Shown piece by piece: positions 562 through 30,462 of a stretch of DNA of 64,000 nt. The translations under genes were made by a program, and so were the position numbers. This DNA comes from a virus (Duplodnaviria; Heunggongvirae; Uroviricota; Caudoviricetes). Within the stretch, counting starts at the first letter, position 1; each line of letters begins with the position of its first letter. The stretch lies in IMG/VR virus record IMGVR_UViG_3300010998_001290; one strand, written 5' to 3'. The notes under the pieces were generated by a model. The model had not been told where the DNA came from. It saw only the letters and a program-made list of their open reading frames with translations, and made no database searches.

Positions 562-605
562 ACTTAAGGTGTTGAAGTTCGTATTATCGAAAGGATGTGT
601 ATATA

Positions 606-1541
606 GTGATTGTCGTAAAAGGAAATGTTGAATACATAGGAGCAGATGATGTAAAGCTCGGCGTTATTACTTTCCCAGAATGGGCAGAATATATTAGAGA
701 TGGCTGTACATTTGCCTTGACTCCGGCAGAAATGCACGAGGTCAAGTTGATAGATTTTGGCTCTGTTAAGTATATCGGTTCAAGATTCTATAACAAAAAC
801 CATCTGATGATAGGCGGCATGGATGCGCTGGAGAGAATATCGTTCTGCGAGATATTTGACAATCTCGAACGAGTTAATGCACCTGAGCTTGTGGAAATCA
901 ACGAAAATCAGTTTAAGGCGTGCAAAATGCTTGAAAGTGTGTCTATCCCAAAGGCACAGGTGATAGGACCTTGCGCTTTTGCATTATGCCCCAAGCTTAA
1001 GAATGTGACCTTTGGTAATATCCAAAGAATAATGTCAAGCGCATTTGACTCTTGCAGGTCACTCAAAACGATTGAACTTCCGGAAGACAGCGAGGTTATT
1101 ATCCAAACGCAAGCATTCGCAAGAACGGGTCTTGAAAAGGTTGATCTACATTCCTGTTCTCTGAGATCATCAGCATTTTTTGCTTGCAGTGACTTAAAAG
1201 AAGTCAAAATAGATGATTTATCTCGTGTTCCCGGAAATTCCTTTTCCTATTGCAATAATCTCAGCAGTATAACCTTACTCACGGCACCGAGAGAGTATAA
1301 CCTGCCGTACACAGGCGAATGCTGCGAATATGAGCTGCGGATTAGCGAAGATGCGTATATACTTCCGAGTGAACCTATGAAAACGGTATGTTACAACGGC
1401 ACGACGGGAGAATATGTACAGACAATACAGTTGTATAATAAAAAGGTATATGTGATGAAGGATGGCAGGTATGTAATGTCCGAACTCGGAGAAGCCTTTG
1501 AAATAAGCTTTGAACAGCTTAAAACGGAGCTCGGAGAGTAA
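606..1541 (+). CDS. BspA-type leucine-rich-repeat (LRR_5-like) protein, paralogue 1 (alternative GTG start 597)
   Basis: Repeated 'AF..C..L..V.LP' units. Conserved N-terminus (IVVKGNVEYIGADDV) and C-terminus (YVMKDGRYV). AAAGG RBS 10 nt upstream of GTG 606. Confidence 0.7.
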   Translation: MIVVKGNVEYIGADDVKLGVITFPEWAEYIRDGCTFALTPAEMHEVKLIDFGSVKYIGSRFYNKNHLMIGGMDALERISFCEIFDNLERVNAPELVEINENQFKACKMLESVSIPKAQVIGPCAFALCPKLKNVTFGNIQRIMSSAFDSCRSLKTIELPEDSEVIIQTQAFARTGLEKVDLHSCSLRSSAFFACSDLKEVKIDDLSRVPGNSFSYCNNLSSITLLTAPREYNLPYTGECCEYELRISEDAYILPSEPMKTVCYNGTTGEYVQTIQLYNKKVYVMKDGRYVMSELGEAFEISFEQLKTELGE

Positions 1542-1583
1542 TCATTCTCTTGATACCAACGAAAAATCAACACTTAAGCGGAA

Positions 1584-1611
1584 GGGGCACTCGGTTGCCC
1601 CTTTTGTTTTT
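1584..1611 (+). terminator. intrinsic terminator
   Basis: GGGGCAC-tcgg-TTGCCCC hairpin plus TTTTGTTTTT. Confidence 0.7.
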
Positions 1612-1624
1612 ATGCCCGAAATAG

Positions 1625-1660
1625 CATACTAATAATAGTATCATATCAAGATGAATGGAG
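1625..1660 (+). promoter_or_regulatory. promoter cassette: CATACTA plus GATGAATGGAG box
   Basis: Sits 14 nt after the terminator at 1584-1611, spacing 18 nt. Confidence 0.6.
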
Positions 1661-1713
1661 GTTCAGAGTGGTATTTAGTCAAAATATGAATAATATAGAA
1701 AGGTGTGTATGAA

Positions 1714-2907
1714 ATGATAATAGAAAATGGCGTTGTTATAAAAATCACAGATGCTGATGTAGCGTTTGATATGCAGCGCGAAGGATATGGAGTACTGAAC
1801 CTTCCTGATGAAGCGACAGTACTTAAGGCTGACGTTACCGGTATCTCACCGTCAATGAGGTCAAACATAAAGGAACTCAGAGGGAAAAACATTCAGTATA
1901 TAGAGGCTTTTACAGATCATTGCGGAGAAAAGTCGTCTTTGACGCCCACTTTTCCCGCTCTGGAGCTTTTCGATATGCCGAGCCTTAAAGAGATCCCAAA
2001 GGAGGCTTTTGTTCAGCATAATATGCTTAAAAAAGTAGACCTCCCAAGCGTTAAATATGTCAGGGAGATGGCTTTTGAGGATAGCAGTATCGAAACTGTC
2101 ATATTGCCTGAAGCAGTGACAATATACGAGTCTGCTTTTAACTTTTCGGATATCAGCTCTATATATGCAGATAAGGTCGAAATCATTGAAGAGCGGGCAT
2201 TTGACGAATGTAAGAAATTGGATAAGCTTCATATGCTTAATGTTCGGCTGATAGGGAAATACGCATTTCAGAATTGCAACAAACTTAGGCTTATATATTT
2301 CGCCAAAGTGACGAACATAGACGATGCTGCTTTTATGGGGTGTAAATCTCTTGAAGAAGCGAATCTTCCCTCTGTACAGTCCATTGGTGAATACGCTTTT
2401 TCTAACTGTAAAAAGTTGAGCAGGGTGCATTTAGGCGATGACCTTAAAGCTATTCAGTACATGGCATTTTACTCCTGCGCAATAACAAATCTAAAAATCG
2501 GAAAAGCTGCCATTGTAGAAGCAGAAGCTTTTGAAAACATACAGAAGGACGTGGATGTTTATTGCGATGTTCCGGAGCAAATCGATGGAGCATTCGGATT
2601 TTTCCCCAACGGGAGAAAGGTCAAAAATGTATATTTCGCGAAGAAATATACCGAAAGGCAAAAGCTTCCTTTCTTGACAAGTAACGAATGCAGTTATCTT
2701 GTATTTCCGAATAAGAGAATGAGAGCCCTTTCAGTGAATACTTCACAGGTCTTTGAGGTGGAGCAGGAGATTTCCTGTATAGACGGAAAAACCTTGTGGA
2801 TACTGCGTAACGGCTGTTATGCTGTTAAGGAGACATACGGCAAGGTGATAAAGTATTGTTCAGGCAAAGAAGAGCTTGAAAAGGCTTTGAATGCTCCGCC
2901 GTTTTGA
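1714..2907 (+). CDS. BspA-type LRR protein, paralogue 2
   Basis: 'MIIENGVVIKITDADV' N-terminus, many 'AF..C..L' repeats, C-terminal 'LWILRNGCYAV'. RBS AAAGG. Confidence 0.7.
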   Translation: MIIENGVVIKITDADVAFDMQREGYGVLNLPDEATVLKADVTGISPSMRSNIKELRGKNIQYIEAFTDHCGEKSSLTPTFPALELFDMPSLKEIPKEAFVQHNMLKKVDLPSVKYVREMAFEDSSIETVILPEAVTIYESAFNFSDISSIYADKVEIIEERAFDECKKLDKLHMLNVRLIGKYAFQNCNKLRLIYFAKVTNIDDAAFMGCKSLEEANLPSVQSIGEYAFSNCKKLSRVHLGDDLKAIQYMAFYSCAITNLKIGKAAIVEAEAFENIQKDVDVYCDVPEQIDGAFGFFPNGRKVKNVYFAKKYTERQKLPFLTSNECSYLVFPNKRMRALSVNTSQVFEVEQEISCIDGKTLWILRNGCYAVKETYGKVIKYCSGKEELEKALNAPPF

Positions 2908-2918
2908 TGGAGGTTAAT

Positions 2919-3833
2919 ATGATAATATACAATGGTTTAGTAAAAAGGATAGAAGCTCATGATTTCGTGGACAAAGAGATACGATTTCCGGACGAAGCTC
3001 GTCGTATATGCGAAGATGTTCAGATAAGCTTTGAAGTCCAGCTTTTATTTGAAACTGTAGAATACATTGATTTCAACAATATTGAGGGCATTGACAGGAA
3101 AATTGTTCTCAATAAGGTAAAGAAGATCGATGCACCTCAGCTTTATATTGTGTGGGAAGACCAATTCTCGTACTGTGAGAAGCTTATGGAAATCAATATT
3201 CCGAGAGTAGAAACGATCAAAAGGAGAGGGTTCTTTAACTGTCGCGCTTTAGAGAGCATCACGCTGTCTAATATAGCGAGGATTGATGAAGAAGCTTTCT
3301 ATTGCTGTGTTGCTCTTACAAAAGCAGAGCTTGGAGACAACATTAAGTTTGTTGGCACAAATGCTTTCAGAAATACGAATTTATCGTATATAGATCTGAA
3401 ACAGGCTGAAGAAGTAAGAACCGGTGCGTTTAAGAACTGTACTCATCTATTCCAAATCAGGGTAGCAAACCTGAATGTGCTGAAGAGTAAGGCTAATGTT
3501 CTTGAAGGATGTGAAGACCTCAGATGTATAACCTTAACTCAGGGCTCTGTCTCAGCTAAGAAGTATCCTTATACCAAAATAGGCTGTGAATACACCATTG
3601 AGAGCATAAAGGGAAACGAGCACATCAGGCTGCTATCGGGCAACAGTGCTGCCGACGTGTATCACATAAGCCAAAAGATAAGCGGGGAAAGCTTTGATGA
3701 TGAGGAATTTATGAGCGATATTTATGTTACGGACGGCGGTGATATGGTGGCTGTTAAGAAAAGTAAGACAACTGGATTTAAATATGTTTGTCGAGGAGAC
3801 ACTGCAAAAATCAGGCAGTTTTTAGAAGCGTAG
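2919..3833 (+). CDS. BspA-type LRR protein, paralogue 3
   Basis: GGAGG RBS 5 nt upstream. 'MIIYNGLVKRIEAHDF' N-terminus and LRR repeats. Confidence 0.7.
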   Translation: MIIYNGLVKRIEAHDFVDKEIRFPDEARRICEDVQISFEVQLLFETVEYIDFNNIEGIDRKIVLNKVKKIDAPQLYIVWEDQFSYCEKLMEINIPRVETIKRRGFFNCRALESITLSNIARIDEEAFYCCVALTKAELGDNIKFVGTNAFRNTNLSYIDLKQAEEVRTGAFKNCTHLFQIRVANLNVLKSKANVLEGCEDLRCITLTQGSVSAKKYPYTKIGCEYTIESIKGNEHIRLLSGNSAADVYHISQKISGESFDDEEFMSDIYVTDGGDMVAVKKSKTTGFKYVCRGDTAKIRQFLEA

Positions 3834-3842
3834 GAGGAATAT

Positions 3843-4784
3843 ATGGTCATAGATAACGGATGTGTAATCGATATAGATAAGACTGATATTATCGAAGGAG
3901 TCCTTACATTCCCAGCTGGAGCAAAGATGCTTGGGTCAAAATCTCAAATATTAGAAGTTTGCAACGAACGGGGCGAATTAACGCGATATTTGGACGGGAA
4001 AAAGTATATTTGTCGGAATTTGCAGGAAGAAAATACTGTAAAAAGATTTACCCCGTTTTTACCTGAGATAAAAGAAATAAATTTTTCTGGCATAGAGAAT
4101 ATAGCGCTCCCAATAGCGCGAATTGCTCCACGGATTCAAACAGTGCATGGAGAAAACATATTATCTATATGCGATTGTTGTTTTGAAGATTGTGAAAAAT
4201 TAAAGGCTATAGATCTTTCAAATGCAAATACGATAGGGAAATACGCTTTTGCTGGTGCAGGGCTTGAAATAGTACTTTTTGGAACATCGATAAAAAATAT
4301 AGACTTTGGTGCATTTTCTTATACAATGCTTGAATCCGTAAATATTCAAAACGCTAAAATAGCTACTCATGCATTTCGGGGCTGCGATTGCCTTCAAACG
4401 GTTTACATGAATTCAACAGATTTATGCGAAACTTGGTCTTTTTATCAATGTGAGGCAATAAATGAAATATATGTAAAAGAATACAATGTTTCGAATATAC
4501 CATATATAGATTCGGGGTATGAGTACAGCATATGTGAATGTAACGGGAATGGAACAATGCATAACATCATATGTGGAGACGATGAGGTCAGTGAAGAGAT
4601 AGTGTATGAATATGTTCAAAAAATGAAATGTCAGGGGGTTGACGGCAACTTATACATTTTGAAGGATGGAAGAATTATTCATATTTACCAGTATGAGACT
4701 TATGACGGAATTGAAAATAAGGTAAGTCCTGAGTTCAGCAGCATAGATGAGTTTAAAGATTATATGGATATGGAGGGAAGTTAA
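3843..4784 (+). CDS. BspA-type LRR protein, paralogue 4
   Basis: GGAGG RBS. 'MVIDNGCVIDIDKTDI' N-terminus, LRR repeats, C-terminal 'LYILKDGRIIHIY'. Confidence 0.7.
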   Translation: MVIDNGCVIDIDKTDIIEGVLTFPAGAKMLGSKSQILEVCNERGELTRYLDGKKYICRNLQEENTVKRFTPFLPEIKEINFSGIENIALPIARIAPRIQTVHGENILSICDCCFEDCEKLKAIDLSNANTIGKYAFAGAGLEIVLFGTSIKNIDFGAFSYTMLESVNIQNAKIATHAFRGCDCLQTVYMNSTDLCETWSFYQCEAINEIYVKEYNVSNIPYIDSGYEYSICECNGNGTMHNIICGDDEVSEEIVYEYVQKMKCQGVDGNLYILKDGRIIHIYQYETYDGIENKVSPEFSSIDEFKDYMDMEGS

Positions 4785-5731
4785 TGATTCTTTCAGGAAA
4801 AGTTTTGTACGGAATAAACGAAGATGATGTAAATGTGAAGGAAAAGACCCTTCGTATTGGCAACGGCGTTAAAGAGATGTCGGATAGGTGTAATGTCAAT
4901 ATAAGAAAAGAAATCAGGGAACAGATAAAAACCATTGACTTTAATGAACTTGTAGCAGTAGATCATTTGAGTGGATGTACTGTTCACGATGTTTTCCCGA
5001 ACGTAGAAGTCGTACTGATGCCTAAAGCAAAGACGGTATATGCTAATATGTTTGAGAAGTGTCAAAAGCTCAAGAAAGTAGACATGAAAAACGTAGAAAG
5101 AGTACACGAAGCGGCGTTTAAGGGCTGTACCAAACTACAACAAGTTCTTCTTCCTAACGTCATATTTATTGGGAAGGAAGCTTTTGCCGGTTGCGAACGA
5201 CTTGAAACTATCTCCTTAAGGAAAGAGAGAAAGGTAATCCAATACTTTGCGTTCAGCGAAACAGCTGTTGAGACTATCGATCTTGGAGATGCAAAAGTTG
5301 ATCTTGGCGCGTTTAAATGGTGTGGATATTTGCAATCGTTAAGTATAGACACTTTACGGGATTTCGACAGAAGAGCATTAGCAGAGTGTTATGCCTTCAA
5401 AGAGATTTTGGTCAGGGACAAGGAATATGCCTATATAGAAAAGGCACCATGTATAGCAAGAGGTAAGACGTATTCCCTTGTGTATGACGATGAAGAGTCT
5501 CCATTTGCGCCAGATGAAAAACATATGATATGTGGAGTCGAGAAATATGATCATGATCGCGTTTATCCCGTGTTTGAGTACATACAAGCAATAGATACAA
5601 AGTCTGTTAATTCCGGTACATTTTCCAGATTGTACGTTCTGAAAAACGGGAAATATATTGCAGTGTTCACAAACGGAAAGATAAGTCTTGTAAGCGATTC
5701 CGTATCATCGCTCGTTGAAGCAAAAGACTAA
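4784..5731 (+). CDS. BspA-type LRR protein, paralogue 5
   Basis: TAATG overlap with the previous gene. GGAGGG RBS. LRR repeats and C-terminal 'LYVLKNGKYIAVF'. Confidence 0.7.
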   Translation: MILSGKVLYGINEDDVNVKEKTLRIGNGVKEMSDRCNVNIRKEIREQIKTIDFNELVAVDHLSGCTVHDVFPNVEVVLMPKAKTVYANMFEKCQKLKKVDMKNVERVHEAAFKGCTKLQQVLLPNVIFIGKEAFAGCERLETISLRKERKVIQYFAFSETAVETIDLGDAKVDLGAFKWCGYLQSLSIDTLRDFDRRALAECYAFKEILVRDKEYAYIEKAPCIARGKTYSLVYDDEESPFAPDEKHMICGVEKYDHDRVYPVFEYIQAIDTKSVNSGTFSRLYVLKNGKYIAVFTNGKISLVSDSVSSLVEAKD

Positions 5732-5786: not shown

Positions 5787-5836
5787 TGTGTACGAAAGAC
5801 AATAGTTTTTCTTTTTCCTTCTGCTTAATCATACTA
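5787..5836 (+). promoter_or_regulatory. promoter cassette: TGTGTACGAAAGACAATAGTTT upstream box, 21 nt, CATACTAATAGT
   Basis: Motif shared with four other sites. Follows the terminator at 5746-5780. Confidence 0.6.
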
Positions 5837-7004: not shown

Positions 7005-8753
7005 ATGATGATTAAGGAACTGTTAAAGAAGTATTCGTACGATGATGTATGCGCATCTATAATAAGGTATGTGTACCGAAATATGGAATGTGCGCCTAAT
7101 GCAAGCTCTGACTTTATGGCGGAACTCAAGAAGGGCAAGGATGAGATCGTAGAGTACTTCGAGGAGGAAAAGGTAGACCAGAGCATCCAGAATGTTCTGT
7201 CTATGTTTGAAGAGGTCGCCAGCGAGAGAAGCAGGGGTGTCGTATACACACCTTTCAAGGTTTCCAAGCTCATGTTTGATAAGATAGAGGACTATAATAC
7301 CGGCATCAAGTTTATGGATCCCTCCTGCGGCAGCGGCGCAATACTCGTTAATCTGGTGGATTATATCCATAACAAGTTTATGATTTCGCCTATCGACATC
7401 ATCAACAACAGCATTTACGGCATGGACAATGACTATTTCAGCACTAAGCATTGCAAGTTTCTTCTTGAACTGCTTTGCCTCAAGCTCGGATATCACGCTG
7501 ATGGGCTCAAGATGCACATAGTCAATAACAACAGTATGCTCGTTGATTGGGATACCCTCGGCGTAAGAAAGTTTGACTACATCTTCGGCAATCCGCCTTA
7601 TATCGCTTTAAGGGATATGGATAAGGAAGAGCGCGAGCAGTATGAGAAGCAGTATGAAGTCGCTAAGGGAACATACAATATGGCGCATCTGTTCCTTGAA
7701 AAGGCTATAAAATATGTTAAGCCTAACGGCACTATATCATTCCTTGTCATCAATAATCTTTTCACACACATCTCATCGAAACCGGTAAGAGAACTCATAA
7801 TGCGCACAGGCTATCTTCACGAGGTTATTGAGTTCAATAAGATAAGGTTGTTTGAGAATGCCGAGGTGCTTACCACGCTTATCACATTAAAGGCTGCGTC
7901 GCATACCAAATTCGGCTATGCGAGACCTGAAGCTCTTAATAAGATAGTTCTTGTACAGCTTCCGCTGTCGGAACTTAAGGCTGAAGAATGGGTGTTTGCG
8001 AACGCAAAACAGAAGGAATACCTTGAGCATATCAGGTCTTTTGATACTAAGCTTAAGCCCTATATGAGCGGTTGTATAGCAACTCTTGCCGATAAGGTGT
8101 TCATTCTTGACGATGACGGAAAGACAAGAAGCAACCCCAAGAGACAGAGAGCCATAAAAATCGAGGATGGTATAATCAAGGAAATGTATCGTCCTCGCAA
8201 TATGGAAGGTGAAAAGGCTAAGAAGCTGAAGGTACTGTTTCCGTATGACGAAGACTTTAACACGCTGAGTCTCGATGATATTAAAGAAAGGTTCCCTAAG
8301 GCTTATCAGTATCTTAAAAACAACGAGGAAAAGCTGAAGCAGAGAAGCTGGCAGGATCAGTGGTACGCGTTCGGCAGAAGACAGGGGCTTGCAGTGGAGC
8401 ATAAGGCTGTTCTATTCGGCTGCTATTCCAGAAAGCCGAGATTTATCGTTCCTGATGACGATACGGCACTTCTTCTTAGCGGCGCGTACATAAGCAGCAA
8501 CATACCGGTGAAGCCTGATGTGCTTGCGGTTATCCTGAATTCCGATGTAATGGCGTGGTATATTAAGAAGGTATCGTTCCCCATTTACGGAGACTATTAC
8601 TACTACGGCAAGAAGGTCGTGGGCGACTTCTCGATACCTCCGCTTACCGAGGAAGAGGAAAAGGCGCTGCTTTCTATGACGAAGAGCGAGGTTAACGAAT
8701 TCCTTATCAAGAAGTACGATATAGAGGGTATCGAACTCGAAGAAACGGCATAA
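7005..8753 (+). CDS. N6-adenine DNA methyltransferase (gamma-class, Eco57I/TaqI-like), orphan
   Basis: Motif I '[13 protein letters not shown]' and motif IV 'IFGNPPY'. AGGAGG RBS. 582 aa with a C-terminal target-recognition-like region and no nuclease domain. Confidence 0.85.
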
Positions 8754-11031: not shown

Positions 11032-11120
11032 ATGGTTACAGCGGCAATAATGGTCGCGGGAATACCTGCGGCTGCGGCAGTGACGGCGTTTGAAAAGGAT
11101 TCCGGCAAATGTTCAATAGT
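11032..11120 (+). repeat. GC-rich ~90-nt non-coding element, copy 1 (homologous to 19505-19625), ending in the shared CCCCTC..GAGGGG terminator
   Basis: Blocks 'cggcaataatggtcgcgg', 'gcggcagtgacggcg', 'tttgaaaagga' align with the second copy. GC is well above the local average. Confidence 0.5.
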
Positions 11121-11146
11121 CCCCTCTTCGGAGGGGATTTTTGCTT
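11121..11146 (+). terminator. intrinsic terminator
   Basis: CCCCTC-ttcg-GAGGGG plus a T-tract. Confidence 0.7.
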
Positions 11147-11167
11147 TCCGATTTCCAAATAAACAAT

Positions 11168-11174
11168 CATACTA
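11168..11174 (+). promoter_or_regulatory. CATACTAATAGT promoter element
   Basis: After the terminator at 11121-11146. Confidence 0.55.
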
Positions 11175-11210
11175 ATAGTAAGCTTTTTAGAAAGGAAGGT
11201 TTTTAAAACT

Positions 11211-11951
11211 ATGAAAAAGCGTACAGTAGGCGCTCTTTTAGCGAGCGCTTTAATGGCAATAATGACAGTAAGCGGATGCTCAGGGCAGAGCTCGGATAGG
11301 ACTCCGACAGGAACTCTTGCATCTACGACAACAACCAAGGCTACAACAAAGGCGACGACAGAAGAAACGGAGGAAACAACCGTGGAAGTTGAAGAGACAG
11401 AGATCGAGACCGAAGCGACGATAGAGGAAGAAGAGGAAAGCGCAGAGCCTACCGAGAAGCAGGCGGAGCTTATTGCCTTCCTTATGGAAGATCTGGACGA
11501 GAACCCTAACTCAAAGGAAAATAAGACGGCAGAGCTTAAGGAGAGTGGCTGGACGGACGAAGATATTGAGTTCGCGTTTGATTATCTTCAGGTAGATTGG
11601 GGGTATGTAGCGTCTATCAAAATGTTCAGTCTTATGGCGGATACCGAAAATCTTTCCGCGCAGGCTGTAGTAAACGAACTCAGCGGGCTCGGCTTTACAA
11701 ACGAGGAAATCGAGACAGCAATCAACGATGATATGATTGACTGGCACGAACAGGCGTTCTTTGCGGCAACCTCACTTATAGAGGATGATATGTCAATGGA
11801 AGACCTTAAGAAGAAAATGGTCGAAGATTATCTGTTTACCGAAGAGGAAGCAGACTACGCAATCAAGACCCTTGAAGATTCTGATTTCAGTTTTGAGTAC
11901 GACGGCGACATAGAAATCGGGGATGTATTCTATCCCGAAGAAGAGGAATAA
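11211..11951 (+). CDS. acidic lipoprotein
   Basis: Signal peptide with lipobox 'TVSGC', Thr/Glu low-complexity linker. AAAGGAAGG RBS. Confidence 0.7.
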   Translation: MKKRTVGALLASALMAIMTVSGCSGQSSDRTPTGTLASTTTTKATTKATTEETEETTVEVEETEIETEATIEEEEESAEPTEKQAELIAFLMEDLDENPNSKENKTAELKESGWTDEDIEFAFDYLQVDWGYVASIKMFSLMADTENLSAQAVVNELSGLGFTNEEIETAINDDMIDWHEQAFFAATSLIEDDMSMEDLKKKMVEDYLFTEEEADYAIKTLEDSDFSFEYDGDIEIGDVFYPEEEE

Positions 11952-12003
11952 TTAACATTAAGCCTTCCGTTTGGAGGGCTTTTTGTTTTTGCAACTACTC
12001 TGT

Positions 12004-12010
12004 CATACTA
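12004..12010 (+). promoter_or_regulatory. extended -10-like TGtCATACTA promoter element followed by a ~165-nt leader
   Basis: 'gcaactactcTGtCATACTAtat' after a terminator. Confidence 0.55.
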
Positions 12011-12176
12011 TATAAGCAAACACTCTTGACGCTTATATGTGATGAGCCTTCCCAGCGCTCCTTTTAGGATTATTAGAGTAAGTGTAAATGAGAAGTAGTT
12101 CGCATTTTCTCAAATAATCTGTGCTCATCAATGAAGCATTGAGAAGTTTGAATAATACTTAAAGGAGGAATTAGCA

Positions 12177-13634
12177 ATGGTTAATTCAAGAAAGTCGGTT
12201 TTTACGAAAGCCGCAGCGATAGCAATGTCTATCACAATGCTTACATCAGCGTTATCGTTTGGTGTTAACGCATCAGCAGCAGACCTCGAAAGTACAGCAA
12301 CAGTTGCATCATCCGGACCTGTAGTATCGTGTCCGATTGAAGATGGTGTTCTTTACATAACTATCGAGGGCGGTCAGTGGAAACACTGGATTGAGTACGC
12401 CTCCGGCGAAGCAACATCGGGATACGGCACGCTTGATATCAAGACAATCAACGGAGTTGAAACATTCATTTATTCGGATACTGACGGAAATGTAATTCTT
12501 CAGTGGGATGAAGAGGCTCCCTCTAATTCCGGCGGCAGAGGCGATATCACTGATGGCGAAGAAGAGGAGAACGAAGAGGAGACCGGTGCGGTTGACCTCA
12601 AAATCGCGGAAAAGCTTCTGAATATGCTTTATGCAGAACAGAGTGCGTTGAGCGAGGAAGCGGGCTACTTCAACGATATGTACAAGGAACTGAAGTCGTC
12701 AATATCTGAAGCTACAACGATAAAATCAGTTCTGAGAAACACGATGTCCAACGATGAACTGGCTGACATCACAGAGTATATCAAAGCCGCTAATAAGCAG
12801 AAGACATATGCTTATAATCAGTATAAGCGTTTCAATTCTGCTGCTACAAGATGCGGGAATGAGATAAGACTTATCGAAAAACGTCTCGGCAAGAGTAATT
12901 CCGTAGTAGATGTATCCGGTGGAGAAGGCACTTCGTCTAAGAGCGCAGGCACAGGCGGTCTGTCCTTCTGGAAGAGCAGTGCTTATCAGAACGCGGCATC
13001 TAACGGCTATGGTGATGCAACAGATAAGATCGTTACATTCTCCGATGACGAAAAACTGTTCCTTAAGGCGATAAACGAGTATAAGCAGAGTTATTCCACT
13101 AAGGTTTATGCTGTAATTACAGTAAGAAGCAAGACGGAGACTTACTACCTTAAGTATTTCCCCAAGGATAAGGCTGTGTACAGAGTAACTGTAAAGGGCA
13201 CGAAGCTCAGTAATACGCCTGAATACAGTTCGGCGGATATAGCGAAGGGACTGCTCAAGAATTATAAGTTCGCTTATGATAAGCTGAAACAGATCCTTAA
13301 CTATGATTACGCGGTATATACGGCTGCTACCTCTTTCTATGAAGAAAAGGGCAAGCTGTTAAACGAGAAGTATAACGCCATAAAGGACTATAAGACGGAA
13401 CACAAAAAGGATTTTTCTGTAGCTGAACGCGAAACTGTTGATGCAATCATCAACACGTTGGGAGGCAGCGGCACACATCATTATAGGGTTATGGCTGTAA
13501 AGACCGGTAAGATATACCAATCTGGTCCCATAAGCCTTTACAAGTATGCTGCGAAGGAAGTTGAAAAGACAGCGAAATCTATGGGTGTAACGCTTACGTC
13601 TACCGCGACCTCTGGCGATACAGCTAACGGATAA
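12177..13634 (+). CDS. secreted protein, paralogue family member A
   Basis: Sec signal peptide 'AAAIAMSITMLTSALSFGVNASA'. Paralogous to 14328..15920. AAAGGAGG RBS. Confidence 0.75.
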   Translation: MVNSRKSVFTKAAAIAMSITMLTSALSFGVNASAADLESTATVASSGPVVSCPIEDGVLYITIEGGQWKHWIEYASGEATSGYGTLDIKTINGVETFIYSDTDGNVILQWDEEAPSNSGGRGDITDGEEEENEEETGAVDLKIAEKLLNMLYAEQSALSEEAGYFNDMYKELKSSISEATTIKSVLRNTMSNDELADITEYIKAANKQKTYAYNQYKRFNSAATRCGNEIRLIEKRLGKSNSVVDVSGGEGTSSKSAGTGGLSFWKSSAYQNAASNGYGDATDKIVTFSDDEKLFLKAINEYKQSYSTKVYAVITVRSKTETYYLKYFPKDKAVYRVTVKGTKLSNTPEYSSADIAKGLLKNYKFAYDKLKQILNYDYAVYTAATSFYEEKGKLLNEKYNAIKDYKTEHKKDFSVAERETVDAIINTLGGSGTHHYRVMAVKTGKIYQSGPISLYKYAAKEVEKTAKSMGVTLTSTATSGDTANG

Positions 13635-13660
13635 GGCTTTTATCACCGACATATTACAAG

Positions 13661-13690
13661 ACCCCGTTCTATACGGGGTTTTGTTTTTGC
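13661..13690 (+). terminator. intrinsic terminator
   Basis: CCCCG-ttctata-CGGGG plus TTTTGTTTTT. Confidence 0.7.
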
Positions 13691-13701
13691 AACTGCTCTG
13701 T

Positions 13702-13708
13702 CATACTA
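13702..13708 (+). promoter_or_regulatory. extended -10-like TGtCATACTA promoter element
   Basis: 'gcaactgctcTGtCATACTAat' after the terminator at 13661-13690. Confidence 0.55.
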
Positions 13709-13762
13709 ATCTCACAGGCTTTAAAGGCTTGGAATTATTTTATTATTAAGGAGGAGATAACA

Positions 13763-14209
13763 ATGGTTAATCTCAAGAAAACGGTAGCATCGCTTTTAGC
13801 GGTAACGGCAATCATTTCGTCCATGTCAGTAGGGGCAAGTGCGGCGACGGTTTATTCGTCCGGCGGCACAAGTAGCTCGTCAAGCAGCTCATCTAACTCG
13901 TCCTCCAGCAGCGGTACAAACAGCGGTTCAGGGTCAAGCTCAGGCAGCTCATGGAACGGCGGAGTATCACGCAGTTCAGGACTGAATATTGACGCCAAAA
14001 GTATGACCGGTAGCGGTACATTTAAATCACCTTATAAGGCAGTGAAGGGAACTCTTACTGTAAGAGCACCCGGCAAACTCACAAAGACCACAAAGACTAC
14101 CGTAAACGGCAGGAAGGTCACTGTTCTGACCTACAAAGGTGCTAACAGCAACGATACCGTTTATGTACAGAAGGGTTCAATACTCTACAAGTACGTACTT
14201 ACTAAGTAA
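13763..14209 (+). CDS. secreted Ser/Gly-rich protein, signal peptide related to the flanking paralogues
   Basis: Signal peptide 'LLAVTAIISSMSVGASAATVYSSG' matches 14328's 'LTSALSVGASAATIYSSG'. AAGGAGGAG RBS. Confidence 0.7.
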   Translation: MVNLKKTVASLLAVTAIISSMSVGASAATVYSSGGTSSSSSSSSNSSSSSGTNSGSGSSSGSSWNGGVSRSSGLNIDAKSMTGSGTFKSPYKAVKGTLTVRAPGKLTKTTKTTVNGRKVTVLTYKGANSNDTVYVQKGSILYKYVLTK

Positions 14210-14267
14210 ATCATAACACAAACAAAGCTCCTCCTCTGAGGGGCTTTTGTTTTTTGTATTAGTCTGT

Positions 14268-14294
14268 CATACTAATACATGCGAATGATGACAT
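14268..14294 (+). promoter_or_regulatory. TGtCATACTA promoter element plus the 16-bp perfect palindrome CGAATGATGACATTCG
   Basis: The palindrome begins 5 nt after the -10-like element. Confidence 0.5.
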
Positions 14295-14327
14295 TCGTAT
14301 ACATTATTAAAGAAGGAGGAGTTAACG

Positions 14328-15920
14328 ATGGTTACTTCAAAGAAAAACGCGATGATAAGAGCGGCGGCTATAGCTATGTCTTTGACGATGCTTACATCTG
14401 CTTTATCTGTCGGAGCAAGCGCGGCAACTATCTATTCAAGTGGTTCTGCTTCAAGTTCAAACAACGAATCAAGAGACAATGATATTGGACCTGCAATCAT
14501 TGCTTTCCCGTTAGCGGAAGGTGTTCTCCATATCACTACGGGGAATTCGACAGGTTCTTGGACGCAGCATTGGATAGAAGCTTATCCGGAAGGGGCTATG
14601 TCGGCAGACGAGCTTTATGTCCTCACACAAGTGGAAGGCAATAAGGGTATTGATTATGCGCTTACCGATCCTTCGGGCAATATCGTTCAGCAATGGACGG
14701 AAGAGTATTCCTATCCTACAGGGGGCGTACTCGAAGCAGAGGCGATAGAACTTACTGAAGAGGAAGCCGAAAGGATTACAAGTTCCTTAAGGAAAGACTA
14801 TGCAGCGGCCGGAGAGATCGATAACGAGCTCGGTTATCAGCTTCTCGATGCTCTTTACGAGGAACAGACGGTATTGACAAAAGCTGTAAACTTCTATAAG
14901 GAGTTATCAACCTCGCGCAGGGAATCGGCAAAGGGCGCGGCTAATGTCAAGGTAAAGCTTTCAGCGGCGCTTTCCAGTGCTCAGAAGAACGACCTTACAG
15001 ATTACATCAACAATTGTAATAAGGAAGCGTCATACTTCACGAGACGGGCAACCACGCTTAATAGTATGCTTTCTCAGACAAAAACGGAGATAAAGAGACT
15101 TACAAAGGCTCTGGGCAACATCTCTAAGAAATATGGCTCCGGTGACGAAAAAGAGTATTTTATTCCGGTGTATGGCGGCTTAAGTGAGAATATAGACACT
15201 TCTACAACAAGAATGAGCAACGATGGCTACTTCGCATTCTGGAACAGCTATCATATAGGTAATGCTCTCGGAGTTGACACAAGCTCAGGAATGTATCTCG
15301 TTATAGGCAAGCCGATAGTAGGTATTTCGGGGGATATGGCACTTCTCTTAGCACTTTGCAACAATCCCGGCAAGCCTTATGACCTTACGAACTCAAAAGG
15401 TGAGACTGTTTATGTTGCTTACATAGGCGGCAAGGTCTATAATGTGGACGCAAAGGGCAAAAAGCTCAGCAAGAAGGAAGCATTTGACATCAGCGATACC
15501 GTTAAGCATATCGTAGGTCGTTATTCCTTAAGCAGCAGCGAGGCAGCTCTTAACGCTTCACTTGAGGAAAAGCTGGTCTATGAGACGGCGGCGGACTTCT
15601 ATAAGACAAAATCCGAAGAAATCAAGGAAATTGTATCTCTTCTGAAGAAGTATAAGAACGATAATTCCAAGACATTATCTTCTACCGACAAATCTAAGCT
15701 TACAGCTTATATTAACGCTTATAACAGCTCAGCAACCTACTTCACGAGAAGAAAGAACTCGTACACAAGTATGTCGAAGACGGCGAATACTGAGGCAAAG
15801 AGACTTTCTAAGCTTCTTGAGGTAACAGGCGACAGTTCCGGCAAGACAGGCGACTTCGGCTTCTGGAAGACGGCTCTTACAGAGGGAAGATTCGTTCCGA
15901 CATATATGTACGCTTCGTAA
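14328..15920 (+). CDS. secreted protein, paralogue family member B, with an internal duplication
   Basis: Signal peptide almost identical to 12177's. Internal repeats 'YINNCNKEASYFTRR' and 'YINAYNSSATYFTRR'. GAAGGAGGAG RBS. Confidence 0.75.
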   Translation: MVTSKKNAMIRAAAIAMSLTMLTSALSVGASAATIYSSGSASSSNNESRDNDIGPAIIAFPLAEGVLHITTGNSTGSWTQHWIEAYPEGAMSADELYVLTQVEGNKGIDYALTDPSGNIVQQWTEEYSYPTGGVLEAEAIELTEEEAERITSSLRKDYAAAGEIDNELGYQLLDALYEEQTVLTKAVNFYKELSTSRRESAKGAANVKVKLSAALSSAQKNDLTDYINNCNKEASYFTRRATTLNSMLSQTKTEIKRLTKALGNISKKYGSGDEKEYFIPVYGGLSENIDTSTTRMSNDGYFAFWNSYHIGNALGVDTSSGMYLVIGKPIVGISGDMALLLALCNNPGKPYDLTNSKGETVYVAYIGGKVYNVDAKGKKLSKKEAFDISDTVKHIVGRYSLSSSEAALNASLEEKLVYETAADFYKTKSEEIKEIVSLLKKYKNDNSKTLSSTDKSKLTAYINAYNSSATYFTRRKNSYTSMSKTANTEAKRLSKLLEVTGDSSGKTGDFGFWKTALTEGRFVPTYMYAS

Positions 15921-15945
15921 GCGGCTACTATACGAATGAAATAAC

Positions 15946-15976
15946 AGAGCTTTGTGAACGCAAGGCTCTGTTTTTC
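15946..15976 (+). terminator. intrinsic terminator
   Basis: CAGAGC-tttgtgaacgcaag-GCTCTG plus TTTTTCTT. Confidence 0.65.
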
Positions 15977-26651: not shown

Positions 26652-26686
26652 AAAGGCTTGCTTCGGCAAGCCTTTATTATTTTCGG
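26652..26686 (+). terminator. intrinsic terminator
   Basis: AAGGCTTGC-ttcg-GCAAGCCTT plus a T-rich tail. Confidence 0.7.
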
Positions 26687-26690
26687 CAAT

Positions 26691-26697
26691 CATACTA
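26691..26697 (+). promoter_or_regulatory. CATACTAATAGT promoter element upstream of the ABC transporter genes
   Basis: After the terminator at 26652-26686. Confidence 0.55.
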
Positions 26698-26765
26698 ATA
26701 GTAGCCAAATTCAGCGATTGCGGGATTTCGGAGGCTATTACAGATATAGAAAGAGAGACTATATT

Positions 26766-27491
26766 ATGCTTAATGTTAAGGATATATCGAAGAGTTTCGG
26801 CACAAATAAAGTGCTTAACAGGGTCTCATTGGATGTCAATGAAGGCGAAATAGTAGGGATACTCGGTGAGAACGGAGCAGGAAAGTCAACTTTGATGCGT
26901 ATCTTAAGCACGATGCTTAGCTTTGATAGCGGTGAAGCAAGTGTAAACGGACACTATATAGGGAAAGATGACATAGAAGTAAGGAAGTCGATAGGAGTAC
27001 TGTTCGGAAGCGAAGTAGGACTTTACGGAAATCTTACTGCGAGAGAGAATATCGACTATTTTGGTAGGCTTAATGGGATGAAATCGACTAAAATACAGAT
27101 CGATAGACTGGCGGAGGTACTTGGTTTCGGAGATTATCTTGACAAACAGGCGCGGCATCTGTCAAGGGGTATGAAACAGAAGGTATCCTTTGCAAGGGCT
27201 GTAGTACACGATCCACCGGTCATACTGCTTGATGAGCCTGAAACAGGACTTGATTTTGTAGCTGCTAAGACCGTATTTGATTTTATGCTTTCCTGTAAAA
27301 AGCAGGGTAAAGCTGTGTTCTTCAGCAGTCATTCTATGGAGAATATAAGATATTGCAGTGACCGTATCATTCTCCTTAGGAATGGCATAATCCAATACAG
27401 CGGAGATATGCATCAGATAAACGAAAATAAATCCGACAGCGAAATAAGGACAATGTTCTATAATATGATACTCGGCGAGGAGGTATACTGA
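26766..27491 (+). CDS. ABC transporter ATP-binding protein
   Basis: Walker A 'GENGAGKST', ABC signature 'LSRGMKQKVSFARA', Walker B 'ILLDEPETGLD'. Confidence 0.85.
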   Translation: MLNVKDISKSFGTNKVLNRVSLDVNEGEIVGILGENGAGKSTLMRILSTMLSFDSGEASVNGHYIGKDDIEVRKSIGVLFGSEVGLYGNLTARENIDYFGRLNGMKSTKIQIDRLAEVLGFGDYLDKQARHLSRGMKQKVSFARAVVHDPPVILLDEPETGLDFVAAKTVFDFMLSCKKQGKAVFFSSHSMENIRYCSDRIILLRNGIIQYSGDMHQINENKSDSEIRTMFYNMILGEEVY

Positions 27492-28633
27492 TGCTTGCTG
27501 TATATTTAAAAGAACTCAAAGAGATGGTAAGGGACAGGAAAACGCTCTTCATTACGGTAGCTACACCGCTTATCGTAATAATGTTCATGATATCTATCAT
27601 CTCATTTTCAACAAATGAGCTGACTACAAGTATTGTAAACAACATTACCATAGGTGTAGAGGATACAAACAGCGACTTTGCTCAATTGCTTGCGGCAGCG
27701 GACGGCATAAAGGTCGTAGAAAGCAAGGAACCTCTTAAGGATATGAGAGCCGGATCCATCGGAGCATATCTTGAAGCTCCGGATAATATGACAGAGCTTA
27801 TGCGGTCGGACGAGGAGATACCGGTCGAGATAACATATAACAACGGGTTATTGGAATCTCAGGCAGCAGTATCAGTCTTAAGTGAGTTTATCAACACACT
27901 AAACGATACTTATCTCACAAATAAGCTTGATGAAAATGGGCTGCCTCATACATATGCGGCGAAGTATTCTACCGAACTCAACAATGTAGAAGTAAAGACA
28001 AATGGCTCTATAATGCTTACTATGTTCCCTATGTTGCTAATCACATATTGTCTGTTCGGCGTATCAGCAATAGCCAATGACCTTGGAACAGGGGAGAAGG
28101 AGAGAGGAACGCTTGAGTCTCTCCTTGCAACAGGCGTAAAGAGAAACTCTATAATGGCAGGCAAATACCTTGCTATATGTACATCGGGCATCTTATGTGC
28201 TGCCAGCTCACTGTTGGGTTTTGTTTTCTCGTCCGGATTAAATCCCATGTTATCGCTTGATATATCGTTTACGGATGGTTTGATAATACTGTTTCTGGCG
28301 CTTTTGGTAGCAAGTGCGTTTGCTGGATTATGCTTTGCATTAAGTATTTTCGCCAAGACCAACAGGGAGGCGCAAATGTACAGCACAATAATCACATCTA
28401 TATCTATTCTTCCTTCGATAACTATGTCTTCGGTTGATGTAGCAAGGCTTAGCGCTGCGGACTTCATCGCACCTTTATATAATGTGGTATATTGCCTTAA
28501 GGAAATATTACAACATTCAATAAACCCTGTACATATCCTGATTACCGCAATCTCAATGGCAGTTTGCGTGGGGTTGTGTTTCTTCTTAACAAAGGTAATG
28601 TTCAACAACGAGAGGTTTTTGTTCAGAAAATAA
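27491..28633 (+). CDS. ABC-2 type transporter permease
   Basis: ATGA-coupled to the ATPase. N-terminal TM, large extracytoplasmic loop, then five more TM segments, which is the ABC-2/NatB-like topology. Confidence 0.75.
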   Translation: MLAVYLKELKEMVRDRKTLFITVATPLIVIMFMISIISFSTNELTTSIVNNITIGVEDTNSDFAQLLAAADGIKVVESKEPLKDMRAGSIGAYLEAPDNMTELMRSDEEIPVEITYNNGLLESQAAVSVLSEFINTLNDTYLTNKLDENGLPHTYAAKYSTELNNVEVKTNGSIMLTMFPMLLITYCLFGVSAIANDLGTGEKERGTLESLLATGVKRNSIMAGKYLAICTSGILCAASSLLGFVFSSGLNPMLSLDISFTDGLIILFLALLVASAFAGLCFALSIFAKTNREAQMYSTIITSISILPSITMSSVDVARLSAADFIAPLYNVVYCLKEILQHSINPVHILITAISMAVCVGLCFFLTKVMFNNERFLFRK

Positions 28634-28770: not shown

Positions 28771-30462
28771 ATGATGAAATTACCGGATAATTACTATCCA
28801 ATACCGGAAGAGCTGGCTTTTAAAATGGCTCAGAAGGCATTTAAGAACTACAAACCCGGCGATACTGCTTATGTCCTTGAGCCGTCCGCCGGAACAGGAG
28901 ACATGATTAAGGGTATTGAGAAGTTCTCAGACAGGCAGCATCCATATTGTTGCCGATATGACATTGACTGCATCGAGATCAACCCTGAGCTTGCCGCTAT
29001 ACTTAAGGAAAGATACTGTGAGTATGGCGAAGAACGGGTGAGAGTTGTGTATGACGATTTTCTTACATTTAAGACAGATAAGGTCTATACACACATACTG
29101 ATGAACCCGCCATTTGATGAAGGAGAAAAACATCTGCTGAAAGCTCTTGACATCTTGAAGAACGGCGGGGTCGTTGTGTGTCTCTTGAATGCTGAAACAT
29201 TAAGAAATCCGTACACAAACACAAGAAAAGAGTTGACAGATCGTCTTCTTGAGCTCGGCGCTGATATCGAGTATATCGAGCACGCCTTTTCTGAAGCGGA
29301 GCGTCCGACTGATGTTGAGGTAGCAATGATTACAGTAACGATAGAGTCAAAGCCTTATACAAGCTTCTTCTTTGATGATATGAAGAACTATAGGGATGAA
29401 GACGAGCCTATAGACGAGAATGTTACGGACATAATAGAAGGCTCCGGAACTATCAGAGCAGCAATTGTTTCCTACCGCAACGAGTTAATTCTCGGAAAGC
29501 GCTTCATAAGAGAGTATTATGGACTTCGGAAGTACATACCTGTAAATTTCTGTTCTTCCGATGCAGAAGAGTGGGAGAAAGAAATGTCAAGTGCGCCTAT
29601 CATCGATATCAAAATTGATGGCAATGAGGCGATAAGAAGTACTTATCCTGAAATGCTCAACGCCTTTATAAAACTCCTTAGAAATAAGTATTGGAAAGAA
29701 TTCTTCAAGAACAAGGAGCTTACTGACAAGTTTACCTCAAATCTCATTAAGTCCTTCTCATCTCAGGTGGAACGGCTCGAAAATTACGATTTTAATGAGC
29801 ATAACATAGCCGAGATACGCAATCAAATGATCAATCAACTTACCAAAGGTGTTGAAGATGCGGTCATAGGGATATTCGACAAGCTCTCAGCCCAGCATTC
29901 GTGGTTTCCGGAATGCAGCAAGAATATTCATTATTACAATGGATGGGCATCCAATAAAGCACACAAGATAAACGATAAGGTAGTGCTGCCTACGGAGAGC
30001 AGATACGGCGGGTCGAGTTGGATCTATACAGATAGCTGGCGCAATGAAGCCTTTGATGTGTACGAAGCGTACGGAATGTTGTCAAATATCGAAAAGGTTT
30101 GCTCTTATTTCTGCGTAGAAGGAAAATCTTACCTTGACTTAAGTACACAGCTTTCGATTGCATCTAAGAGAATGATCACGAAGAACATTGAGTGCCGCTA
30201 CTTTGATATCACAATCTATAAGAAAGGAACTGTACATATCAAGTTCACCTCAAAAGAGGCTCTTGAAGCACTCAATATTTACGGCTCAAAGATGAAAGGT
30301 TGGCTTCCTCCGAGTTATGGAAAGAAGCACTACAAGGATATGAATGAAGATGAAAGAATAGTAATTGACGCTTTTCAGGGAGAAGAAGCCTATGAAAAGG
30401 AGCTGGCTGACCCTAAGGGCGTTATCGGAGCAGGAAACGGTGCAATAGCATTGTTATCATAA
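28771..30462 (+). CDS. N6-adenine (amino-) DNA methyltransferase, second orphan MTase, with a C-terminal extension of unknown function
   Basis: Motif I 'YVLEPSAGTGDM' and motif IV 'ILMNPPFDEGEKH'. AAAGGAA RBS. Confidence 0.75.
   Translation: MMKLPDNYYPIPEELAFKMAQKAFKNYKPGDTAYVLEPSAGTGDMIKGIEKFSDRQHPYCCRYDIDCIEINPELAAILKERYCEYGEERVRVVYDDFLTFKTDKVYTHILMNPPFDEGEKHLLKALDILKNGGVVVCLLNAETLRNPYTNTRKELTDRLLELGADIEYIEHAFSEAERPTDVEVAMITVTIESKPYTSFFFDDMKNYRDEDEPIDENVTDIIEGSGTIRAAIVSYRNELILGKRFIREYYGLRKYIPVNFCSSDAEEWEKEMSSAPIIDIKIDGNEAIRSTYPEMLNAFIKLLRNKYWKEFFKNKELTDKFTSNLIKSFSSQVERLENYDFNEHNIAEIRNQMINQLTKGVEDAVIGIFDKLSAQHSWFPECSKNIHYYNGWASNKAHKINDKVVLPTESRYGGSSWIYTDSWRNEAFDVYEAYGMLSNIEKVCSYFCVEGKSYLDLSTQLSIASKRMITKNIECRYFDITIYKKGTVHIKFTSKEALEALNIYGSKMKGWLPPSYGKKHYKDMNEDERIVIDAFQGEEAYEKELADPKGVIGAGNGAIALLS

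Follow-up and report, generated by a model that had tools for sequence, protein, structure and literature searches.

A probable island of autonomous exported-protein units beside a candidate superinfection-exclusion gene in a large uncultured mobile element

Morons of temperate phages, known from comparisons of HK97 and HK022, are autonomous promoter-gene-terminator units that are present in some relatives and absent in others. Surface protein families such as Vlp/Vsp of Mycoplasma and Erp/Mlp of the Borrelia cp32 prophages combine a conserved 5′ region and signal peptide with divergent mature parts, while PrgA/Sea1, of which PrgA is built on a long helical stalk, act in surface exclusion of enterococcal plasmids. 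CwpV of Clostridioides difficile is reported to be a Sec-exported envelope protein that confers phage resistance (PMC4737114). In phage TP-J34, the lipoprotein Ltp is tethered to the membrane and has a Ser-rich spacer followed by repeats; it stops DNA injection by incoming phages and is considered a moron by its authors (PMC3952083). Here, we analyse a window of 64,000 nucleotides (the whole stretch of DNA under study, to whose first letter positions refer unless stated otherwise) from the IMG/VR record IMGVR_UViG_3300010998_001290, in which three genes for predicted exported proteins lie directly downstream of an Ltp-type gene.

Our analysis indicates that four single-gene units for exported proteins, each very probably an autonomous cassette, follow one another in the region 11118–15972, which we call the island. 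The three open reading frames (ORFs) listed in the initial annotation, at 12177–13634, 13763–14209 and 14328–15920 on the + strand, are confirmed; their products of 485, 148 and 530 amino acids (aa) are referred to here as proteins A, B and C. A fourth exported protein, the Ltp-type surface lipoprotein encoded at 11211–11951 on the same strand, had been overlooked. According to a heuristic scan, only a handful of exported or membrane proteins are present in the 64 kb, and four of them are adjacent in the island. By our own estimate, in which about 6 exported proteins are placed at random among about 88 genes, the chance of a run of four is about 5e-4.

A hairpin followed by a U-tract is present 3′ of every island gene (dG −16.3 to −20.6 kcal/mol, z −4.0 to −5.9), and a promoter-like box, TCATACTA, lies 36–166 nt 5′ of each of the four ATG codons. 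All of these features are on the + strand. The intrinsic terminator at 11118–11139 (9 pairs and a T-tract; dG −17.1 kcal/mol, z −4.3) closes the preceding unit and opens the island, and the TCATACTA box of the Ltp unit is situated at 11167–11174, 36 nt 5′ of the ATG. Further terminators are located after the Ltp gene (11960–11981; dG −17.1 kcal/mol, z −4.65), the protein A gene (13656–13684; dG −19.0 kcal/mol, z −5.85), the protein B gene (14224–14247; dG −16.3 kcal/mol, z −4.0) and the protein C gene (15943–15972; 13 pairs; dG −20.6 kcal/mol, z −5.5), the last of which marks the end of the island. The terminator tails run into a repeated cassette, TTTTGTTTTT-N~10-CTGTCATACTA (repeat families D2 and D3; 77–92% identity). 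Copy 1 of this cassette (11974–12010) consists of terminator tail, T-tract and CTGTCATACTA box. Copy 2 (13672–13708) is 86–92% identical to copy 1 and has TCATACTA at 13701–13708, 54 nt 5′ of the ATG, and in copy 3 (14238–14274) the box is at 14267–14274, 53 nt 5′ of the ATG.

Each of the three ORFs is preceded by a strong Shine-Dalgarno sequence within a repeated start region, AAGGAGGA(G/A)NTA(A/G)C(A/G)ATGGTTA (family D1, 71–100% identity). The leader of the protein A gene (12011–12176, 166 nt, Shine-Dalgarno AAGGAGGA) is three times longer than those of its neighbours and is structured (first 140 nt: dG −36.8 kcal/mol, z −2.9). A decayed second box, CTGTGCTCATCA (about 12118–12135), lies within this leader in the position of the functional box of the other two genes, which suggests that the protein A unit acquired a new cassette through recombination. 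The presumed mRNA leader of the protein C gene begins with a conserved 9-bp stem-loop, AUGCGAAUG-AUGA-CAUUCGUAU, at 14279–14300 (dG −9.3 kcal/mol, z −2.6), and its stem is identical in a close relative of the element, L001 (9955–9976).

The gene opening the island encodes a protein of 246 aa with a lipobox (TVSG↓C), a Thr/Glu-rich spacer and three Ltp repeats of about 48 aa. It matches Pfam PF07553 with 30 bits (gathering cut-off 23.2) and phrog_4980, ‘superinfection exclusion’, with an E-value of 7.8e-17, and tblastn matches are found in Streptococcus and Lactobacillus phages and prophages, one of them annotated as sie. With both a PF07553 repeat and a lipobox it belongs to the Ltp family, and its similarities make it a candidate superinfection-exclusion protein. 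Proteins A, B and C are not members of this family, as they lack a PF07553 match, a PHROG sie match and a cysteine at the cleavage site.

Signal-peptide and cleavage calls for the three proteins were made by rule. All of them show the features of Sec export and signal peptidase I cleavage, namely a positive n-region (2–3 Lys/Arg), a hydrophobic stretch of 17–19 aa and an ASA↓A site, with Gly preceding the cleavage region. The predicted signal peptide of protein A comprises residues 1–34 (K6, K11, AAAIAMSITMLTSALSFGV, NASA↓AD, cleavage at 34/35), that of protein B residues 1–27 (K5, K6, VASLLAVTAIISSMSVG, GASA↓AT, cleavage at 27/28) and that of protein C residues 1–32 (K5, K6, R11, AAAIAMSLTMLTSALSVG, GASA↓AT, cleavage at 32/33). 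Neither a lipobox cysteine nor a twin arginine is present at the three N-termini. In the three proteins we also found no LP.T[GAS] sortase motif, no conserved hydrophobic 19-mer that could serve as a membrane segment in the mature parts, and no SLH, CWB2, LysM, choline-binding or other wall-binding Pfam domain.

The initial annotation had described the three proteins as paralogues with near-identical signal peptides. This holds for A and C, whose homology extends from end to end (tblastn E 1e-42; 33% identity) and which share 23 of 32 signal-peptide residues (72%). Protein B aligns with the two large proteins at the end of the signal peptide alone (E 5e-4 and 0.02). Its match to C covers the c-region and the first mature residues (SVGASAAT[VI]YSSG, 11/18 identical, E 5e-4), followed by a Ser-rich run. 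Similarity in the mature region, by which we would define a single family, is thus present between A and C and is not seen for B.

Common to A and C are the signal peptide, a short Ser-rich linker, a beta-rich N-terminal domain with W.HWIE and the GVL[YH]IT motif, which had been noticed before and is indeed present in both, an acidic linker, a helical module, a Gly-rich linker with G.(F/S)FW, a small alpha/beta domain and a second helical module. Protein A (mature pI 5.3, acidic) is laid out as beta domain, acidic linker, helical hairpin, GLSFW, alpha/beta domain and a second helical hairpin that has diverged. In protein C (mature pI 5.5), a Ser-rich spacer after the signal peptide is followed by the beta domain (57–126), helical hairpin 1 (166–263), GYFAFW, the alpha/beta domain (335–400), hairpin 2 (404–496) and GDFGFW. 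The two helical modules of C are internal duplicates (BLASTP E 3e-15, 38% identity), and its gene contains the DNA repeats D5 and D9 705 nt apart. Of the repeated Y.YIN..N......YFTRR modules claimed for both large proteins, two copies with the exact motif occur in C, but only degenerate versions are present in A.

Synonymous sites between the A and C genes are saturated. The duplication that gave rise to them must therefore be old, and the block of DNA carrying the A and B units, described below, is not a recent tandem duplication. Against L001, the protein C gene has a ratio of nonsynonymous to synonymous divergence (dN/dS) of 0.13, similar to its neighbouring genes; it is under ordinary purifying selection between the two elements.

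Protein B (predicted signal peptide followed by a Ser/Gly-rich spacer of about 45 aa; mature pI 10.3) ends in a basic, beta-rich domain of about 70 aa that has no significant similarity to A or C. When this domain was used in a word-indexed search of 5.8 billion proteins, only protein B itself was returned. The description of B as a short form of the family is therefore not upheld, its C-terminal domain being dissimilar to the other two and devoid of homologues. Comparison of the sequences shows instead an unrelated protein that shares only the 5′ leader with A and C, consisting of the ribosome-binding site (RBS), MV(N/T)xKK, the end of the signal peptide and the Ser-rich spacer.

The absence of an orthologue of B for a conservation check, together with an unusable single-sequence model (predicted local distance difference test, pLDDT, 44), leads to the question whether the ORFs or their shared leader arose by chance, or whether the 148-aa ORF is no gene at all. 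The Joint Genome Institute (JGI) annotation at 13763–14209 splits this ORF: only the last 68 codons are called, together with a spurious 48-aa antisense ORF, and both the signal peptide and the Ser-rich spacer are missed. However, the ORF has the D1 start region of its neighbours (AAGGAGGAG-N6-ATGGTTA), encodes an entire signal peptide and is flanked by a box and a strong terminator of its own, because of which we favour the full 148-aa ORF. Mixed codons in the Ser-rich run and the conservation of the large genes under purifying selection in independent assemblies also speak against an artefact, which we regard as extremely unlikely.

Within the family, no segment is better conserved than the signal peptide. 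Between C and A, identity is 72% in the signal peptide, 43% in the short Ser-rich linker and 24–36% in each of the mature domains. A third family member, the 575-aa protein P0004, shares 59% identity with either large protein in the signal peptide and 18–51% in the other segments. In line with this, nonsynonymous divergence (dN) rises from 0.24 in the signal peptide to 0.82 in the mature part, and synonymous differences are close to saturation (proportion of synonymous differences, pS, 0.67), a comparison that rests on 24 synonymous sites. Recent gene conversion or constraint at the DNA level was considered as a source of the similarity and rejected on account of this near-saturation of synonymous sites; an ancient exchange of the 5′ region is possible.

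Such conservation would also be expected if the N-terminal segment were a retained or signal-arrest-release (SAR)-like releasable membrane anchor and the Ser-rich stretch a wall-spanning spacer. The proteins would then be tethered and serve the element's own cycle (timing of release or lysis, wall remodelling, mating or entry) or act in tethered exclusion. The h-region is Ala/Ser/Thr-rich and weakly hydrophobic (19-residue Kyte-Doolittle mean 1.6–1.7), and the Ser-rich spacer directly follows it, an arrangement reminiscent of the anchor and spacer of Ltp. However, all members have retained the canonical ASA↓A site and the Gly in front of it, and this speaks for cleavage. Moreover, the signal peptide is not unusually conserved between close orthologues (3 of 32 residues changed, against 5% overall), and the small number of synonymous sites and the possible old 5′ exchange weaken the comparison further. 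We regard tethered proteins of this kind as unlikely.

Searches for relatives were nearly empty. An exhaustive phmmer search of 1.84 billion representative proteins with protein A retrieved three clusters only, namely the query itself, the protein C type (E 6.5e-23) and P0004, and the word-indexed search of 5.8 billion proteins with C returned two near-identical orthologues only. P0004 is encoded in a similar one-strand element, where its gene adjoins one of FtsH type and follows the same arrangement of terminator and ATCATACTA. When the three proteins and P0004 were scanned with Pfam, PHROGs, NCBIfam and PADLOC, only noise was obtained (GA module E 0.028, ESAT6_3 E 0.09, SIR2 E 0.021). No match resulted from a profile of the helical module against the protein collection and the PDB, from a full-length profile against the PDB, or from tblastn against GenBank phages and PLSDB plasmids, and scans of IMG/VR, GTDB genomes and JGI metagenome contigs with back-translated patterns found no relatives. 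By these comparisons the protein family is new; relatives were detected only within this lineage of elements.

Structure prediction had been proposed as a check in the initial annotation. The AlphaFold2 model of protein C, for which an alignment of 5 sequences was used, has medium quality overall (pLDDT 58.8), but its long helical hairpins 166–263 and 404–496 (pLDDT 70–89) and small alpha/beta domain 335–400 are confident. The fold search found no specific match for them, only generic bundles with TM-scores of at most 0.26.

Adjacent Sec-dependent paralogues whose models contain long helical hairpins, together with the weak ESAT6_3 match, bring to mind secreted helical toxins. These might be pore-forming or bacteriocin-like, directed at competitors and acting jointly like the tripartite toxins Hbl/Nhe. 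However, tests against Hbl/Nhe and ClyA gave no Pfam or NCBIfam match (HBL and ClyA-type families included), no specific fold match and no conserved hydrophobic segment. A hydrophobic hairpin or beta-tongue is missing, the most hydrophobic mature stretch of C is not conserved in A, an immunity gene is not evident and the structural matches are all generic bundles. We consider a toxin function very unlikely. Membership of the WXG100/ESAT-6 group is likewise not indicated, as A and C are 485- and 530-aa proteins with Sec signals and without WXG in the hairpin turns, and their resemblance is that of a generic bundle.

Presence and absence in relatives of the element support the view that the units are separable. 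In L001 (Logan SRR27755830, an 87.6-kb contig), the Ltp gene is joined directly to the protein C gene, with flanks of 88–95% nucleotide identity. Both L001 and a second relative, L002, contain the Ltp and protein C genes and lack the sequence corresponding to about 11985–14250 of the window. The missing 2.26-kb block is made up of the A and B units and is flanked by homologous copies of the cassette, with the left breakpoint in copy 1 (as seen from the repeat families D2/D3, the junction alignment and a blastn map) and the right breakpoint in copy 3, the version present at the junction in L001 and L002. At the L001 junction, the post-Ltp sequence continues through the terminator stem and then switches, within the T-tract, to the upstream sequence of the protein C gene. 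Because homologous copies bound the block and the junction lies within the cassette, our alignments indicate that the block was gained or lost by recombination between cassette copies, and such cassette-bounded gain and loss shows how elements of this kind reshuffle their exported repertoire. In the same region of L001, an IS605-type TnpB gene (OrfB_IS605, Cas12f1-like TNB; L001 7720–9099, − strand) is inserted just 5′ of the Ltp gene, between the equivalents of window positions 11158 and 11159.

By these observations the units behave in a moron-like way. Each has its own terminator downstream and a box upstream that may be a promoter, and two of them are present or absent in close relatives with clean boundaries. 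A base composition deviating from that of the flanks, as would be expected of morons, is not found, the GC content being 0.44 in the island and 0.41–0.44 around it.

The absence of the 2.26-kb block from L001, together with the unrelated cargo of protein B behind the same leader, also leads to the assumption that the export leader serves as a conserved plug-in socket. Such a socket would comprise terminator tail, TCATACTA, AAGGAGGAG-N6-ATGGTTA, an MV(N/T)xKK...ASA↓A signal and a Ser-rich spacer, behind which extracellular cargo is swapped; its signal segment might even be a retained or SAR-like anchor. Recombination between copies of the leader or cassette would then swap, add or delete unrelated extracellular domains. 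We give this idea little weight, but if it is true, a cassette system bounded by promoters and terminators would diversify the surface-exposed repertoire of the element.

The best explanation overall, which we put forward tentatively and with less than even confidence, is that four insulated exported-protein units act at the envelope to protect the carrier cell. Each unit would produce its own mRNA, from the promoter-like box TCATACTA after a T-tract, over Shine-Dalgarno, export signal and gene to the terminator. The proteins would be exported through Sec and, we infer, cut by signal peptidase I after ASA. They would end in the cell wall or the medium, since they lack an LPXTG motif, a lipobox, a membrane segment and any known domain for wall binding. 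The basic protein B would probably adhere to the anionic wall, and the two large acidic proteins would present a four-helix bundle, formed from two 45-residue helical hairpins, and two small beta-containing domains. At the envelope, these proteins would block adsorption or DNA entry of competing phages and elements, or mask a receptor. As to function proper, exclusion or defence is ranked first among the possibilities, though by itself it remains doubtful; this kind of envelope-level protection is placed at the head because of the Ltp neighbour and the moron-like behaviour. A role at the cell envelope had been suggested before; it is reasonable and is strengthened by the upstream Ltp gene, although no search result bears on the function.

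Release into the surroundings has to be weighed against this. Without anchoring motifs, release is plausible, and the proteins could be secreted factors that bind plant or host polymers, other cells or host molecules, that is, products of conversion genes such as those for the secreted immune-evasion proteins on Staphylococcus aureus prophages. With its small beta domains and helical bundle, the modelled arrangement of several domains is similar to that of binding proteins. At least 12 BspA-type leucine-rich repeat (LRR) paralogues, another protein-binding family, are present on the same element, and the samples are gut- or rumen-like in appearance. However, no adhesin, CBM, dockerin or Ig-type family was found in the Pfam and NCBIfam scans, the BspA-like proteins lack signal peptides and so stand outside the export theme, and the Ltp neighbour suggests defence. 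We consider secretion for the surroundings rather unlikely.

Several points weigh against envelope-level protection as well. Neither homology nor fold gave support for a function of the three proteins in any search, and cleavage was judged by rule alone. The conserved signal peptide and Ser-rich spacer suit a retained anchor at least as well as a disposable signal. Adjacency to the Ltp gene is guilt by association only, and in the distant relative L004 a family member adjoins an FtsH-like gene and not an Ltp gene. Own promoters and terminators are common across the element, so that the three genes are not singled out by them, and the GC content of the island equals that of its surroundings. 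Exclusion would pay off only if the element has a carrier state, lysogenic or plasmid. If the three proteins do act at the envelope together with Ltp, they would be new sequence-orphan factors of exclusion or surface conversion from poorly known large elements of anaerobic gut or rumen Clostridia. The island offers three candidates, each with its own promoter-like box and terminator, for one of which, the 148-aa gene, public annotation misses the full reading frame.

The terminator and promoter cassette that had been assigned to each of the three genes exists in structure but is not peculiar to them. The window contains 25 copies of TCATACTA on the + strand and a single one on the − strand, against an expectation of 2.45 (an excess of about 10-fold). 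Although intergenic DNA makes up about 17% of the window, 23 of the 25 copies on the + strand are intergenic. Examples on this strand are found at 5829, 10328, 11167, 12003, 13701, 14267, 16020, 19072, 28696, 32960, 47643 and 61961. The box, with consensus gtTTTTgtTTTtcc-N10-caaTCATACTAata, usually stands right after an intrinsic terminator and T-tract at fixed spacing. It differs from the consensus sigma-70 promoter and is kept both in L001, a close relative, and in L004, a distant one. No gene of the window was recognized as encoding a sigma factor or an RNA polymerase. These features point to an element-wide, promoter-like sequence, and, with box and terminator laid out in this way throughout the element, the view of three independently promoted units as a special investment in export is weak.

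A second box, GACGAATGGAG, is present in 14 copies with at most one mismatch, all on the + strand (551, 1650, 16048, 19100, 20760, 28722, 32987, 35184, 37927, 43744, 47668, 48258, 54546 and 59235), where 1.3 are expected. About half of the TCATACTA boxes are followed by it after 17–22 nt, so that it would be part of the 5′ leader. It defines a second promoter or leader class, to which the four exported-protein genes do not belong, and could either be the sign of a temporal class or be bound by an RNA-binding regulator. A third box, TGTGTACGAAAGACA, occurs on the + strand at 5787, 15978, 25693, 31124 and 33593, about 42 nt 5′ of some TCATACTA boxes, a position putatively that of an operator or activator site. 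The element-wide promoter system may be a more rewarding lead than the island itself.

The window is part of the JGI metagenome contig Ga0139362_1000266 (301,622 bp), and a second assembly of 301,926 bp has the same genes. Nearly all genes of the window are on the + strand. Functions identified in it include orphan DNA methylases, RNase H, a DnaG-type primase, RecJ, an ABC transporter, an SPFH/flotillin protein, LPD28 and a long array of BspA-type LRR paralogues, in addition to Lar, YopX, NinB and a ProQ_C-like domain. These last four are phage-type genes and agree with the earlier description of a phage-like element. However, the 64-kb window contains no virion or structural genes, nor conjugation genes, the 301,622-bp contig was not found in IMG/VR, and the primase is about as near to plasmids (39–42% with the best plasmid matches, in Subdoligranulum, Monoglobus and Ruminococcus) as to gut phage contigs (43%). 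The element is therefore called here a large mobile element, an uncultured phage or plasmid of about 302 kb. A megablast of 25 kb of the window against phages and Rfam and tRNA scans of the window gave no matches.

The best plasmid matches of the primase make a Gram-positive host among the Clostridia (Oscillospirales or Ruminococcus-like), from gut or rumen, probable. The Subdoligranulum ‘plasmid’ with the shared primase is otherwise unrelated to the window and was rejected as a relative. Assignment of a host through the bipartite promoter motif was rejected as well, because 5 matches in 596 Gb are about the chance level. One exact TCATACTA-N21-GACGAATGGAG copy is found at 6320–6357 of L009, a contig of the rumen Ruminococcus sp. 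metagenome-assembled genome RUG12593 (CACZGM010000004.1). It has the same terminator and T-tract surroundings and lies directly 5′ of an ATG, in a contig whose proteins are dissimilar to those of the window. This copy is a weak hint at either the host lineage or a common promoter type.

Some further genes of the element and its relatives deserve mention. The tandem array of BspA-type LRR_5 paralogues (about 305–400 aa each) spans window positions 597–5731 and extends upstream into L006 1–11889, an expansion unusually large for a mobile element. Accessory genes at 28771–30462, 7005–8753, 31221–32807, 26658–28633 and 59281–60966 encode two orphan DNA methyltransferases (DUF4942-type and N6_Mtase/Eco57I-type), an SPFH/flotillin protein, an ABC-2 transporter pair and a RecJ-like exonuclease. 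In L004, the distant relative, genes are present for Fe-hydrogenase, FtsH, a Ser/Thr kinase, PP2C and VWA proteins. Such accessory cargo would be unusual if the elements are phages. Beyond the end of the window, a 482-aa protein (L005 12424–13872) has a weak match to the Cas12f1-like TNB domain (PF07282).

Comparison with known systems shows partial likeness to several of them. The helical modules of A and C differ from WXG100/ESAT-6 hairpins in lacking WXG, in having a Sec signal and not a type VII signal and in being part of 50-kDa multidomain proteins, and the WXG100/ESAT-6 match is no better than that to ferritin or BAR bundles. Like PrgA/Sea1 and CwpV (PMC4737114), the three are predicted Sec-exported envelope proteins of Firmicutes or their mobile elements, of which the known ones block DNA entry. 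Unlike these, they have no LPXTG or CWB2 anchor and no sequence or fold match to them.

As in Vlp/Vsp and Erp/Mlp, a module of promoter, RBS and leader is better conserved than the mature protein and is shared even with the unrelated domain of protein B. However, the known families are lipoproteins with phase or antigenic variation, whereas neither a repeat-tract switch nor an invertible element is seen here and only three copies are present.

Morons of temperate phages are resembled in the own promoter-like box and terminator, and in the absence of the A and B units, with clean boundaries, from a relative of about 90–95% nucleotide identity. In contrast to morons, the island has the base composition of its flanks, its box is of the element's general type and not foreign, and the element of about 302 kb may not be a temperate phage. 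The closest parallel is Ltp of the Streptococcus thermophilus phage TP-J34 (PF07553), with which the three proteins have in common an N-terminal export or anchor signal, a Ser-rich spacer, one or more extracellular domains and moron-like genomic behaviour (PMC3952083), and a member of this family is encoded directly upstream. They differ from it in having neither the Ltp repeat nor a lipobox cysteine and in being 3–4 times larger or unrelated in sequence. The architecture, in which moron-like genes for secreted accessory proteins stand beside an exclusion gene, is thus already known, and the protein family that occupies it here is new.

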